Source: a virus
Length of the DNA: 41,775 nt
Direction: 5' to 3' (one strand)
Virus genome (UHGV): UHGV-0209075
Shown piece by piece: positions 1,689-11,093 of this stretch. The notes beneath the pieces were generated by a model that was not told where the DNA came from, did not search any database, and was given only the letters and a program-made list of their open reading frames with translations. How positions within the stretch are numbered: position 1 is the stretch's first letter; each line of letters starts with the position of its first letter. Made by a program: the position numbers and the translations under genes.

Positions 1689-2354
1689 TCAAACAAAACC
1701 AGCCGCTTTCCGGCGTTCATACTCCTGTTTCAGCAACTCAATTGGCGTTGGTCCCGACGGGCGTTTGGGTGCCGCCAGTTGTCGCCGGACTGGCGGAATG
1801 CTCAGGCCATTACCAACATGCTTTGCCCATTTCGTCAGTTGCCATTCTGCAAGCCGTTTTAGCTCCCCTTCGGTCATCTGGCGCTCAATCCCCTTTGAAC
1901 GCATCTCGAGGCAAATGTGATACAGCACAGGCTGAGACCACGGGTACTTATCACTTCCGTCATATCGCCAGGACTCATTGCGCCAGCGGCGGTACTCCTC
2001 CATCACAGCATCCACCGTCAGACCGAATGGATTGGCTCCGCTTTCCGAAATCAGTGCGACAAACTCAGCCAGGTCCGGAGGCCATGTTTCACCCGCCCGG
2101 CAGCGGTCCATGCACTGGCGGCAGACCTGTCGGATTTGCTGCTCAGTCATCGCGCCAATCTGTGCAATCCAGAGCTTCGAAGGTGCGGCCCCGTTCTTCT
2201 GGGTCCAGCGGTTCGAATAAACCTCCCCCATGAGCTCCCACAGCTTCCACGCCGTTTCCGTCGCTGATAAATCCGTTTTCACGTTCCCACTGCTCACGTG
2301 CTGCCCGAATTTCCTGAACTGCCCGTGATGCGGTGCCACCTGGTGCGGCTGCAT
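1689..2354 (-). CDS. replication protein P-like (helicase loader)
   Basis: Immediately downstream of O-like gene; C-terminal half resembles lambda P by eye (YPW motif, basic C-terminus); start uncertain (ATG at 2354, 2231 or 2150) because the longest ORF overlaps the O-like ORF by 212 nt. Confidence 0.6.
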   Translation of the reverse strand: MQPHQVAPHHGQFRKFGQHVSSGNVKTDLSATETAWKLWELMGEVYSNRWTQKNGAAPSKLWIAQIGAMTEQQIRQVCRQCMDRCRAGETWPPDLAEFVALISESGANPFGLTVDAVMEEYRRWRNESWRYDGSDKYPWSQPVLYHICLEMRSKGIERQMTEGELKRLAEWQLTKWAKHVGNGLSIPPVRRQLAAPKRPSGPTPIELLKQEYERRKAAGFV

Positions 2355-3156
2355 GGCTCACCCCCTTGCTGACTGGTTTAACCTGTGCCCTGACGTGATT
2401 TACGTGACGGGCGAATTTCTGCTCCCACTGAACCTGCGTGAAAACTTTCCCCTCCGCTGCCCAGTAGTCCCGGAAAGTGGCAAGTTCAGCAGGCGTAAAT
2501 TCCGGCTCCGACAGAGCCACTCCCCACAGTGCAGCCCGCCGTCGAAAATCCGGCGACGGATGCCAGCCATCGGTCATCGGAAATTTCCCGATGGGTTCGC
2601 TCAGGCCTTCCAGGTAATCAGGTTCCGCTGCCTGCAACGGCACGCCATTCGACTCACTGATCGGAGCACTCTCGCGCACGCGCGCGTTATGTGTGGGGTT
2701 TAATTCTTTTAGATCTGTATCTTTATTAGTTGCTTTTGTGTTGGCATCATGTTCAAACACAACACCAACATCTGTTTGAACACCTGTTAAATCTCTCTCT
2801 TGTTTTGTTTGAACATCTGCTTCCTTTCTGCTTCTTCTGGCTTGAACAGATGCTTTTCCGGCGGCTGATTTTTTGGTTAATTTTTCCCTGACTGATGCCA
2901 GATCTTCCTCAATCCGAAGATGCACCCATTCATCGCCGTTATCGCAAAAAAACTCCCTCAAGGATGGTTCCACATCAGCCCATCGCTCGTTAGTCAGACG
3001 GGCAATTTTTGCCAGCCTGTTTTTGGGTATTGGCTTCCCTGTTTGCCAGTAATTGAACATCAGCAACAAATACGCACCGTGCTCCTCTGCTGACAAATGC
3101 ATGGTGTCAGCCAGGTAATCAGCTATGTACAGTTGCATGTATGGTAATGCGGCCAT
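2143..3156 (-). CDS. replication initiator O-like protein with DUF1376/YdaU-type N-terminal domain
   Basis: N-terminus MAALPYMQLYIADYLADTMHLSAEEHGAYLLLMFNYW typical of phage replication-initiation DUF1376 proteins; ATG 3156 preceded by GAGGTGA; synteny cro-cII-O-P. Confidence 0.6.
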   Translation of the reverse strand: MAALPYMQLYIADYLADTMHLSAEEHGAYLLLMFNYWQTGKPIPKNRLAKIARLTNERWADVEPSLREFFCDNGDEWVHLRIEEDLASVREKLTKKSAAGKASVQARRSRKEADVQTKQERDLTGVQTDVGVVFEHDANTKATNKDTDLKELNPTHNARVRESAPISESNGVPLQAAEPDYLEGLSEPIGKFPMTDGWHPSPDFRRRAALWGVALSEPEFTPAELATFRDYWAAEGKVFTQVQWEQKFARHVNHVRAQVKPVSKGVSHAAAPGGTASRAVQEIRAAREQWERENGFISDGNGVEAVGAHGGGLFEPLDPEERGRTFEALDCTDWRDD

Positions 3157-3235
3157 GTTCACCTCATCTGGTGCCGAACCTTCCTCTGGTTATAATCTGT
3201 GATCCCCCAATCAACAGAACCAGAGGAGGTTCGAC

Positions 3236-3631
3236 ATGGATTTTGCAACTATCACAAGTAGCGTTGTGTTGAGTGCATGTGTTGCTGGCGTGGTTTCGCT
3301 GGTTAATGGTGCCTGGCAACGCAAATCGGAACGAACCATTGAAGCGCAACGCCGGGCTGCTGAAGCCAGGGCTAAAATAAGAGAAATGGCTCTCACCCTC
3401 GCATTGAAAGAATGGGAACTTCACCAAACCATATCGAAGACAAAGGGATATGGTGTCAGCGGCCCGGAAGTTTACGTCTTTCGATACTTTCGTATGCTCA
3501 ACCTGATGGAAGAAGACAAATTCACGATTGAAAATCTCAGACTGATCCAGCACGACTCCATGTGCGCCGTCGCAGCGATTCAGGCAGAGATCGAGCGATA
3601 CCGGGAGAAAAACGGCCTCCCGATGCCATAA
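3236..3631 (+). CDS. membrane-anchored protein of unknown function (cargo gene antisense to the replication operon)
   Basis: ATG 3236 preceded by AGAGGAGG (6-nt spacer) and a TATAAT hexamer at 3191-3196; residues ~5-24 hydrophobic helix, then Arg/Glu-rich helix and ~70-aa C-terminal domain. Confidence 0.6.
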   Translation: MDFATITSSVVLSACVAGVVSLVNGAWQRKSERTIEAQRRAAEARAKIREMALTLALKEWELHQTISKTKGYGVSGPEVYVFRYFRMLNLMEEDKFTIENLRLIQHDSMCAVAAIQAEIERYREKNGLPMP

Positions 3632-3635
3632 GCAA

Positions 3636-3836
3636 TCAGTGTTTTTCATCTTTCCAGATCCTCATATCAGGCTTTCGCCCGATGAACCGGCGAAAACAAT
3701 TTAAAATCCATCGGGTGAAGTAATCCCTGAAACCAAAGAGATACCAGGTGAACAGATTCACGATAAAATGTCCGGCCAGAGCCCCACCGATACCACAGGC
3801 AAGAACAGTAAAAAGATCATGTAGATTCACAGGCAT
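3636..3836 (-). CDS. small hydrophobic protein (66 aa, one predicted TM helix, basic C-terminus)
   Basis: ORF 31 nt downstream of cII-like stop, convergent with 3236-3631 (stop codons 4 nt apart); weak SD so coding status uncertain. Confidence 0.3.
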   Translation of the reverse strand: MPVNLHDLFTVLACGIGGALAGHFIVNLFTWYLFGFRDYFTRWILNCFRRFIGRKPDMRIWKDEKH

Positions 3837-3867
3837 CCCCCGTCATTGTTAACACCGTCTCGTACTT

Positions 3868-4293
3868 TTAGTGCATCACCACGGCATTTCCCGCCGGACC
3901 ACCACGATTCATCTGATTGAAACCAGCGATCGCCACTGCAACAAAATCATCAGCGTCTCTCACCAGTCGTTCCCGCGTCTCCACCAGTTCCCGAAACCAG
4001 GCTGAACTGTGGCTGCGCATTCGGGCCACCAGCAGAGGCGGCATTGCTTTTTCGATCGCTGGTAACAACGCCTGAATTTTTTTAACCGCATCAGGGGTGT
4101 CTTTCTCCACCCAGCGGAAAATTTTCTGAGTATTGCGAGCCAGGGCTTCCGGATGGCTGTCGTCATACAGTTCCGGGAACGTCATTCCCAGCTCGAAATA
4201 CGCTTTGGTAATTTTCGCAGCCGGTACTTTTTCGCCGTCCGGATGCGCCCAGGCATTCATCGCCATGCGGATGTGTTCATGCTTGATTTTCAT
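3868..4293 (-). CDS. CII-position regulator, resembles YdaT-family proteins of Rac-like prophages
   Basis: 141-aa ORF translationally coupled to cro-like gene (start/stop overlap at 4290-4293); N-terminus MKIKHEHI; synteny. Confidence 0.5.
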   Translation of the reverse strand: MKIKHEHIRMAMNAWAHPDGEKVPAAKITKAYFELGMTFPELYDDSHPEALARNTQKIFRWVEKDTPDAVKKIQALLPAIEKAMPPLLVARMRSHSSAWFRELVETRERLVRDADDFVAVAIAGFNQMNRGGPAGNAVVMH

Positions 4294-4505
4294 GAATCAT
4301 TCTTTCCTTCGTTCGAGGTGCTATCCTGCTTCTTGTAAAGTTCTGGGTTGTATTTCAATTCACCGTTAGTAATTTCATCCAGTTCCATTGCGCGAAGTTT
4401 GGGAATAACTGCTTGCCACCGCACAACAGCCACATGTGAAATTCCAAGAGCCTCAGCTACTAGTCGCTTTTTTTTGAAATAGCGCAGAACATCATCTTTG
4501 AACAT
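4290..4505 (-). CDS. Cro-like HTH regulator (YdaS/Cro type)
   Basis: 71-aa ORF divergent from repressor; HTH segment KKRLVAEALGISHVAVVRWQ; AGGAGA SD 5 nt upstream of ATG 4505. Confidence 0.7.
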   Translation of the reverse strand: MFKDDVLRYFKKKRLVAEALGISHVAVVRWQAVIPKLRAMELDEITNGELKYNPELYKKQDSTSNEGKNDS

Positions 4506-4534
4506 AAAACTCTCCTGTTATTTCGAGCAGGAGG

Positions 4535-4596
4535 GTAACAATAGTTACATAGCAATGTCAACCATAGCAACATCACTTGGTAGTAACATTGGTTAC
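4535..4596. promoter_or_regulatory. OR-like operator region: two 14-bp dyads GTAAC-N4-GTTAC (4535-4548, 4583-4596) in the repressor/cro intergenic region
   Basis: GTAACAATAGTTAC and GTAACATTGGTTAC, centre-to-centre 48 bp; the second abuts the repressor ATG at 4597. Confidence 0.5.
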
Positions 4597-5271
4597 ATGA
4601 AAAACACTATCAGCGAACGTATTCGGAATCGTCGAAAAGACGTTGGATTAACCCAACAGCAGGTTGCGAAAGCAATCGGCATATCTCGTGTATCCGTAAC
4701 AAAATGGGAAAATGGCTCTTCAAAACCTGACGGTGAGAATTTGCATCTACTGTCAAAATTGCTTTCCAAATCTCCTGAATGGATTCTTTATGGAAAGGAC
4801 GGTCACGATAAAACCGATGATCTGCGTCTGAATCAGTATCTTTACATTAGTGACAACATCGCCCGGTTGCCCGTTTTAACGTGGGAACAGGCTGGTTATT
4901 GGGATATGAGTTGTCCAGTAACCGAGATTCCTGGCATTAAGAATTGGGTTGATGTCATGACAAAAACCGCTGAAAACTCTTTTTTATTGCATGTTGAGGG
5001 AGATGCGATGACAAACTCTAACGGCCTCCCAACCATCCCCGATGGATCTACCGTGCTGATCACACCATGCTCAAGTAACATTAGAGAACTGGTGGGAAAA
5101 ATAATCTTAATCCAATTGGAAGGAACGCCAAACGTAACACTAAAAAAAGTTGCGATTGACGGACCAAACATCTATCTGTTGTCACTGAATCCGCTTTACA
5201 AACCCATCGAACTGAATGGTGGTTACACCATTAAAGGTAAAGTTTCACAAATACATCAATACTTAGACTGA
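4597..5271 (+). CDS. cI: CI-type repressor (HTH_XRE N-domain + LexA/S24-like C-domain) with Ala at the nucleophile position (GDAM instead of GDSM)
   Basis: HTH LTQQQVAKAIGISRVSVTKWENG; C-domain motifs HVEGDAMTNSNG and VTLKKV align by eye with lambda CI EVEGNSM / FTFKKL; start taken at ATG 4597 (ORF-track ORF begins at TTG 4498). Confidence 0.8.
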   Translation: MKNTISERIRNRRKDVGLTQQQVAKAIGISRVSVTKWENGSSKPDGENLHLLSKLLSKSPEWILYGKDGHDKTDDLRLNQYLYISDNIARLPVLTWEQAGYWDMSCPVTEIPGIKNWVDVMTKTAENSFLLHVEGDAMTNSNGLPTIPDGSTVLITPCSSNIRELVGKIILIQLEGTPNVTLKKVAIDGPNIYLLSLNPLYKPIELNGGYTIKGKVSQIHQYLD

Positions 5272-6283: not shown

Positions 6284-6578
6284 ACTGACAGTTTACTGAA
6301 AGGATATTTCTCTGAAAAGTCAGAGCATAACGCGAAAGCACACGGAGAAGCTCGTCTCTCTGTACTTTGTCGTTAAATTTAATTCGACCGTGCGCTTCCG
6401 GTTGTGGCAATCCGCGAAATGGCGCGGCGGTAAGTATGGCGGGGTTATTCCTTCCCCTTGAGGACACCGGGTTGTCAGGCTGACCATACGCTTAAGTGAC
6501 AGCCACGCCACAATATCCATGTGTAGTCTTTGGTGGCATCAGTTCTACTCCGTGACTGCTCTGCCGCCCTTTTTAAAG

Positions 6579-6749: not shown

Positions 6750-6938
6750 ATGGAAACGTTATTACCAAACGTTAATACGTCTGAAGGTTGTTTTGATATT
6801 GGTGTTCTGCTCAGTAACCGGGAGTTTACGGAAGATGCCATTAAGATGAGAAAATATGAACCTTATCTTCTCAATGATAATTCCATACTTTCCAGAATTG
6901 CCCTTCTTGAACTTGGTATTATCGGAGAACAGCAGTGA
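6750..6938 (+). CDS. small protein (62 aa), AT-rich cargo gene; function unknown
   Basis: ATG 6750 preceded by GAGGA (7-nt spacer); lower GC than neighbours. Confidence 0.4.
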   Translation: METLLPNVNTSEGCFDIGVLLSNREFTEDAIKMRKYEPYLLNDNSILSRIALLELGIIGEQQ

Positions 6939-11032: not shown

Positions 11033-11093
11033 TGGCGGAGAGAGGGGGATTTGAACCCCCGGTGGAGTTGCCCCCACTCCGGTTTTCGAGACC
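11033..11093 (-). other. attP core: 3' ~61 nt of a tRNA-Ser(CGA)-like gene (anticodon loop to CCA) without the 5' half
   Basis: Minus-strand GGTCTCGAAAACCGGAGTGGGGGCAACTCCACCGGGGGTTCAAATCCCCCTCTCTCCGCCA has anticodon loop, long variable arm, T-arm GGTTCAAATCC and acceptor 3' strand plus CCA; sequence 5' of it is not tRNA-like. Confidence 0.6.

Follow-up and report, generated by a model that had tools for sequence, protein, structure and literature searches.

What is a gene on the plus strand doing in the middle of the early operon of a lambdoid prophage, where its neighbors on both sides are read from the minus strand? The question is raised by the window analyzed here (the whole stretch of 41,775 nucleotides of UHGV virus genome UHGV-0209075), the first 11 kb of which form the early region of a Rac-like lambdoid prophage. 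The features that bear on it are the following.

1689-2354, minus strand: lambda-P-like gene, located after the DUF1376 replication gene
2143-3162, minus strand: replication initiator with DUF1376 and a DnaT DNA-binding domain (PF07120, E=4.1e-26; PF17948, E=7.2e-18), the downstream neighbor
3169-3238, plus strand: conserved leader of ~70 bp
3236-3631, plus strand: PD-λ-6 gene, 131 aa (PADLOC PDLC04020; phrog_36733; AlphaFold2 model)
3636-3836, minus strand: small membrane-protein gene, 66 aa from ATG 3836 or 64 aa from GTG 3830, in line with the pR operon
3868-4293, minus strand: ydaT, CII-like transcription factor (PF06254, E=1.4e-9; phrog_163, E=3.4e-45), the upstream neighbor in the pR operon
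4290-4505, minus strand: P22-Cro-like gene
4498-5271, plus strand: LexA/S24-type repressor

In a preliminary description of this DNA, the two flanking genes were called cII-like and O-like, both on the minus strand, and the profile searches bear this out, with ydaT on one side (phrog_163 carries the label 'CII-like transcriptional activator') and the DUF1376/DnaT replication gene on the other. Since YdaT is described in PMC11879457 as a transcription factor and as the analogue of CII in lambda, both labels hold. The start of the replication gene is placed by PGAP at ATG 3156, as opposed to GTG 3162. The interval around PD-λ-6 is found with 100% identity over 801 bases in E. coli M15 (NZ_CP185789). 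In the same strain, the nin-Q region is encountered a second time at a distance of ~41.5 kb, a sign that copies of the prophage may lie in tandem.

By sequence, the plus-strand gene at 3236-3631 is a member of the PD-λ-6 family: the PADLOC PD-Lambda-6 model (PDLC04020) matches its product end to end (residues 1-131 on profile positions 1-131 of 131, E=6.9e-90, 296 bits). The sole PHROGs result is phrog_36733, an unannotated family, and neither Pfam nor NCBIfam returned a match for this protein or for that of the small convergent open reading frame (ORF). PD-λ-6 has been described (Vassallo et al. 2022, PMC9519451) as a one-gene anti-phage system that was obtained by selection with λvir and then validated experimentally in E. 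coli K-12. It corresponds to clone λ-64 from E. coli UMB6655, in which the sub-library peak marks a single 'hypothetical' ORF of 396 nt (PMC9519451, Tables S1-S2). In that study, MG1655 received each system on a low-copy plasmid together with the promoter native to it, and no effect on adsorption was seen (PMC9519451, section 7). Restriction of λvir from the native promoter with normal adsorption is published for the UMB6655 allele, and may hold for the allele of the window. Nothing essential sets the gene of the window apart from the published system (PDLC04020; DefenseFinder PD-Lambda-6), with which it shares the length of 131 aa, an N-terminal membrane helix, the lack of any other domain, and the location in an E. 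coli lambdoid prophage; it differs from the commonest allele in 2 of 131 residues. The gene being already catalogued and its family experimentally validated, its novelty is low.

The preliminary description had located the ORF, the Shine-Dalgarno sequence (SD), and the TATAAT hexamer correctly, and had read the gene as a moron-like acquisition, possibly one for defense, that could be assigned to no family. The reading as a moron with a function in defense is supported by the match to a validated system, and the family was already known. We put at roughly 0.85 the probability of the explanation as a whole, according to which PD-λ-6 is cargo of a variable slot, would be expressed in the lysogen and act at the membrane, and is inherited together with the small ORF.

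The protein itself is under strong constraint (dN/dS = 0.03-0.15). It has a single hydrophobic segment, with a Kyte-Doolittle maximum over 19 residues of 2.02 at residues 5-23, and the AlphaFold2 model (mean pLDDT 86) consists of helices only (3-70, 77-92, and 98-125). The N-terminal transmembrane helix proposed in the preliminary description is thus present, with helices following it in the model, and PD-λ-6 is predicted to be a single-pass inner-membrane protein with its membrane helix at about residues 5-27. The N terminus, short and devoid of positive charge, is predicted to be periplasmic, and the three-helix domain of ~100 residues, preceded by a cluster of Arg and Lys, is predicted to be cytoplasmic. 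The protein appears to have no enzymatic domain. A fold search returned generic helices only and no relative at the level of fold or domain, and the HHpred table of the authors (PMC9519451) contains for PD-λ-6 weak matches of a membrane-helix type only (LapA_dom, holins).

Other assignments of this protein were considered and rejected. In a 2024 preprint, PD-Lambda-6 is described as 'related with lipoprotein', and LSAC is indeed found at residues 12-15; the would-be lipobox cysteine, Cys15, is not conserved, however, as the homologues P0008 and P0044-P0048 have Gly, Ile, or Ala at this position, and the N-region, which begins with MD, contains neither Lys nor Arg. An i-spanin is contradicted by the absence of homology and by a charge distribution that predicts the opposite topology. 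No homology of sequence or fold was found between PD-λ-6 and families of superinfection exclusion proteins or spanins (SieA, SieB, Imm, Rz, and others). On the opposite strand, an ORF of 161 aa (3164-3649, minus strand) lies across from PD-λ-6, its codons aligned with those of the gene. This frame is open in four homologous loci (loci are denoted by L numbers below) and broken in L009 and L011, with one stop in Trabulsiella and three in E. albertii, and it is most likely a shadow ORF of PD-λ-6.

That no defense domain can be recognized in PD-λ-6, together with the occurrence of a BssS-like biofilm regulator among the ORFs that follow the same leader, might also point to a lysogenic-conversion effector acting from the membrane on host physiology, with phage resistance as a side effect of overexpression. 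Such a function is quite improbable in view of the defense that a low-copy plasmid conferred with the native promoter (PMC9519451) and of the restriction of the family to phage and prophage contexts.

How this gene came to lie within the early operon is indicated by a comparison of related prophages, which shows PD-λ-6 to be cargo in a variable slot between the CII-like ydaT and the replication initiator. At one site (L006) the slot is empty, and ydaT and the DUF1376 replication gene are only 86 bp apart, so the adjacency of the flanking genes in relatives that is expected for a moron is observed there. Elsewhere, the slot is occupied by the ECs1072 family (L004 and L017) or by other ORFs (L005). 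The cassette is present in 17 of 5,426 complete E. coli genomes and, by tblastn, in none of 50,697 phage records, and its neighbors vary in turn, with either DUF1376 or a 361-aa protein as the replication gene and either a LexA-type repressor or RacR for immunity. The rarity of the cassette, the variability of the slot, and these differing replication and immunity genes exclude a core gene of the replication module, the finding that by the preliminary description would have spoken against its reading. Its delimitation of an insert of ~700 bp (3163-3867) needs to be narrowed, as the cargo extends over ~3236-3867 and the left ~75 bp (3163-3235) are the leader, which is kept at the empty site L006.

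Among lambdoid morons (Hendrix/Juhala) and the defense hotspots of P2 and P4 (Rousset et al.), the same features are encountered of an additional gene inserted between genes adjacent in relatives, of independent expression, which is probable for PD-λ-6, and of a slot that accepts alternative cargo. The slot described here differs from them in that the promoter, SD, and ATG are themselves conserved across unrelated ORFs and slots, in that no terminator was found, and in that PD-λ-6 lies antisense to the host operon.

The wider family is small. A profile search of 1.84 billion representative proteins gave only 27 relatives of PD-λ-6 at E<1e-3, all of them 100-150 aa long, in each of which a Gly/Ala-rich N-terminal membrane helix is combined with a basic stretch and with the motif LAxxxALxEWxxH, after which comes PPxxYxxxY; for the locus search a narrower PD-λ-6 alignment was used, the family-wide one being too divergent. 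Genes like PD-λ-6 are placed antisense to both of their neighbors in all seven of the contexts found.

Context 1 (the window): ydaT and the replication gene
Context 2 (L007, Citrobacter): Cro and CII-CP76
Context 3 (L022): Rha and an 86-aa gene
Context 4 (L009, Trabulsiella): major capsid and packaging FI
Context 5 (L034): Cro-89aa and a CII-like gene
Context 6 (L035): VRR-NUC and DNA polymerase
Context 7: L036

If the placements are independent, the chance of such uniformity is ~0.008, and the orientation fits a gene that is made while the surrounding lytic operon is silent.

Upstream of PD-λ-6 lies the leader (plus strand, TGGTGCCGAACCTTCC...TATAAT...AGAACCAGAGGAGGTTCGACATG), the elements of which are arranged as follows.

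3168-3173, plus strand: -35-like element CTGGTG
3191-3196, plus strand: TATAAT
3222-3229, plus strand: SD AGAGGAGG, 6 nt ahead of the start codon
3236, plus strand: ATG of PD-λ-6

The leader is conserved in 635 of the 5,426 complete E. coli genomes (12%) and can be aligned across 13 loci upstream of different ORFs, with TAnnnT retained in all 13. Behind it are found, in addition to PD-λ-6, the ECs1072 family (the commonest, mostly in EHEC), an unannotated 151-aa ORF in L005, a 97-aa ORF in L016, a BssS-like ORF in L015, and a PD-λ-6 relative of 35% identity in L034, and between unrelated ORFs the similarity stops at the ATG. At the empty site L006, the leader persists at a distance of 5 nt from the stop codon of ydaT, and ATA stands in place of the ATG. 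The -35 element of the window is weak and a promoter-consensus scan made no call there, while the homologous site in L006 was called as a sigma-70-like promoter (TTGTGA-16-GATAAT) directed into ydaT. AGGAGG is not over-represented in the window, with 10 sites against 15 expected.

The position of this leader brings to mind lambda pO and oop: in both cases a promoter beside the start of the replication gene is directed antisense, toward the 3′ end of the cII-like gene. It might therefore be asked whether the functional product is an oop-like antisense RNA which lowers the expression of the CII-like ydaT, with the ORF of secondary importance. The same direction and position of the promoter, and its retention at the empty site, where a transcript would enter the 3′ end of ydaT, are in keeping with such a role, as is the finding that no terminator-like site was detected on the plus strand downstream of 3631, so that the mRNA of PD-λ-6 probably continues, in antisense orientation, into both the small ORF and ydaT. 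On the other hand, the unit of the window has neither similarity to the lambda oop sequence nor an oop-type terminator, no Rfam match was found in the interval, and what it carries is a translated gene behind a strong SD, with a strong protein-level constraint (dN/dS about 0.04). Defense, moreover, is conferred in trans from a plasmid in a host devoid of this prophage (PMC9519451). We regard the RNA as the main product as highly improbable.

The leader is also the site of a long imperfect palindrome around the -10 element that covers the SD and the ATG of PD-λ-6.

3161-3236: imperfect palindrome, with paired arms 3161-3172/3219-3230, 3172-3181/3227-3236, and 3182-3191/3218-3227

In the minus-strand RNA, its folding energy is -43.2 kcal/mol (z = -5.15). 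The region of the replication-gene start is paired in this fold with the antisense of the PD-λ-6 start. In the 13 loci no covariation or compensatory changes were found, by which a hairpin is neither supported nor refuted. The palindrome recurs in the leaders of L003-L022.

Several peculiarities of other occupants of the slot may be recorded here. In L015 (2497-2820), the BssS-like cargo is out of frame with the leader ATG at a run of eight A, which could reflect a frameshift, phase variation, or a sequencing error. In L004 (3136-3832), L005 (3137-3770), and L016 (2568-2942), long ORFs of the plus and the minus strand overlap within the slot, for example ECs1072 (151 aa, plus strand) and a 185-aa ORF on the minus strand, or the 97-aa ORF on the plus strand and a 117-aa ORF on the minus strand. 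The N terminus of the latter matches an in-line 89-aa ORF of L034.

The second gene of the cassette converges on PD-λ-6. An ORF of 66 aa at 3636-3836, with a gap of 4 nt between the two stop codons, had been noted before and is present as described; what had been missed is that it is a conserved traveling companion of PD-λ-6. To judge from its pattern of substitution, it is a real gene under purifying selection. Protein identity is 73% to the Citrobacter orthologue and 60% to that of Trabulsiella, while synonymous sites have reached saturation. The dN/dS ratio amounts to 0.09-0.27, and third codon positions account for 32-35 of 57-63 differences. The motifs LACGIGGxLxGHF, GxRDxFT, and GRKPD are conserved, and every orthologue has an SD properly spaced from its start codon, which in the window favors GTG 3830 or ATG 3836. 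Homologues are annotated by PGAP from the equivalent of GTG 3830 (64 aa), which may be the true start. The AlphaFold2 model is one long, GxxxG-rich helix (residues 5-51). PADLOC gave no match, and the family, with seven clusters, is as narrow as that of PD-λ-6.

The small ORF adjoins PD-λ-6 in five contexts, namely next to ydaT, Cro, Rha, the head module, and in an icd-linked remnant of E. albertii, and in the first four of them it is convergent to PD-λ-6 and in line with the phage operon. Similarity of the cassette between contexts ends on one side at the ribosome-binding site and start of the small ORF and on the other at the -35 region of the leader, and the mobile unit therefore comprises the promoter-leader, PD-λ-6, and the small ORF, ~670 bp in all. 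No terminators were found, and thus the 3′ ends of the two transcripts would overlap, which invites comparison with type I toxin-antitoxin pairs, made up of a small hydrophobic toxin and an antisense RNA.

This companionship touches on the published assignment. According to Table S2 of PMC9519451, the ORF occupies 426209-426605 and the cloned region 425952-426863 (912 bp), leaving a flank of ~257 nt on either side of the ORF, with room for the whole small ORF and ~50 nt upstream of it. The validated clone thus holds the small ORF, and it is therefore not strictly shown that one gene suffices. In the accessible part of that paper, we found no mention of the convergent small gene, the conserved leader, the slot, or the strict antisense placement.

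PD-λ-6 could accordingly be a two-gene module in which defense requires the small protein as an effector, or in which this protein is the toxin of a pair resembling toxin-antitoxin systems, and the one-gene assignment would be incomplete. Besides the content of the clone, the co-inheritance of the two genes in five contexts with tight boundaries, the equally narrow distribution of both families, and the purifying selection on the small ORF point in this direction. We nevertheless consider it unlikely, because the small ORF has no conserved promoter in front of it, the upstream sequences being different in every context; because it is absent beside the distant homologues of PD-λ-6 (35-38% identity; L034-L036); because in the E. 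albertii remnant it is frameshifted next to an intact PD-λ-6; because it stands alone in L018; and because the sub-library peak was mapped by the authors to one ORF (PMC9519451).

Another possibility, to which we give a little under an even chance, is that PD-λ-6 acts alone and that the small ORF, an ordinary early gene unconnected with it, is carried along as a passenger by linkage. The publication as a single-gene system (PMC9519451), the other convergent neighbors of distant PD-λ-6 homologues, and the occurrence of the small ORF apart from PD-λ-6 (L018) agree with this. What a mere passenger leaves unexplained is that adjacency is kept in early-operon, Rha-flanked, head-module, and remnant contexts, that the cassette ends exactly at the start of the small ORF, and that the convergent spacing of 4 nt is retained in three of four contexts.

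Copies and counterparts of the small ORF outside the cassette were also seen. In L018 (3001-3600) and L019, a copy of 78% identity follows NinE without PD-λ-6, and in L018 it is succeeded by AT-rich foreign DNA with a convergent 209-aa ORF, which may represent another exchange of cargo at the same junction. In L034 (3396-3401), the PD-λ-6 relative of 35% identity keeps the convergent gap of 4 nt with a different partner, a non-membrane ORF of 89 aa.

To return to PD-λ-6 as lysogen-expressed cargo, the arrangement suggests how its expression could be governed. Its transcription would start within the conserved leader, at a weak sigma-70 promoter of its own, and run opposite to the repressed pR operon, and the protein should therefore be made in the lysogen. 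Because no promoter-like site was found on the minus strand within 3163-3867, the replication genes would be reached only by pR transcription that passes antisense through PD-λ-6, and upon induction this read-through along the whole gene would be expected to lower its expression. The small membrane protein, in turn, would be expressed with the lytic operon. That timing and its GxxxG-rich helix make it a candidate modulator of PD-λ-6, for example a factor of self-immunity during lytic growth of the prophage itself, a proposal that we offer tentatively.

The site of action can be guessed at from two properties, unaffected adsorption and a bare membrane anchor with a helical bundle, which together make the inner membrane the most likely place. 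There, PD-λ-6 would act during or just after entry of the genome, either by interfering with the injection apparatus (in lambda, ManYZ and the tape-measure protein) or by sensing that apparatus and causing membrane failure. From the predicted structure and by analogy, a direct block at entry or an early stage may be proposed, with odds somewhat short of even, and membrane-level abortive infection is possible with still lower odds. A search of the literature yielded no text on the mechanism of PD-λ-6, the call between abortive and direct action being presented in a figure only.

An analogy is offered by SNIPE/PD-λ-1, a membrane-bound nuclease that acts at ManYZ and the tape-measure protein during lambda injection (PMC13190303). 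SNIPE was obtained in the same λvir screen and has a single N-terminal membrane helix, a periplasmic N terminus, and a cytoplasmic body, a layout predicted also for PD-λ-6, which differs in having neither a nuclease nor another catalytic domain and no sequence similarity to SNIPE. SieA of P22, gp15 of HK97, Imm and Sp of T4, and RexB of lambda are small, prophage-encoded inner-membrane proteins made in the lysogen that block a superinfecting phage after adsorption, a group that PD-λ-6 would resemble if it acts as proposed, but no sequence, Pfam, or PHROG link connects them with it; more generally, no link of sequence or fold was found between PD-λ-6 and known entry-blocking proteins.

Other elements in the early part of the window deserve mention. 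The DicF small RNA is found at 6518-6569 (plus strand; Rfam, 58.3 bits, above the gathering score) and dicB at 6750-6938 (plus strand). Protection against lambda through inhibition of ManYZ has been reported for DicB (PMC6832061), and the prophage may therefore carry two separate anti-lambda functions, PD-λ-6 and DicB. Just beyond a frameshifted integrase and beside the tail-fiber genes, the sequence at 11033-11087 resembles a short piece of tmRNA (E=6.5e-4, below gathering) and probably represents the attachment site.

The main finding is an ordinary one in that the PD-λ-6 gene is already catalogued, and the remaining interest lies in the partner gene within the validated clone, in the leader, which different cargo have in common and which may mark the slot, and in the strict antisense placement. 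The first of these means that the validated PD-λ-6 fragment contains a second conserved gene, unscored so far. We can speculate further that PD-λ-6 is the lysogen half of a two-part cassette, neutralized or retuned by a 64-aa membrane protein made only from the lytic operon, whereby self-exclusion of the prophage would be avoided, and that the leader marks a general slot for cargo in enterobacterial lambdoid prophages, a combination that we hold to be rather doubtful. In practical terms, the leader is a cheap positional handle for harvesting candidate lysogeny-phase cargo, including ECs1072 of EHEC, from hundreds of E. coli prophages; if it does mark a general slot, the ECs1072 family, the BssS-like gene, the 97-aa ORF, and others would be candidates for undiscovered defense or conversion genes. 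Finally, the strict antisense placement suggests a switch, by which PD-λ-6 would be expressed in the lysogen and shut off by read-through once the prophage is induced, and such silencing may be how prophages avoid a defense directed against themselves.
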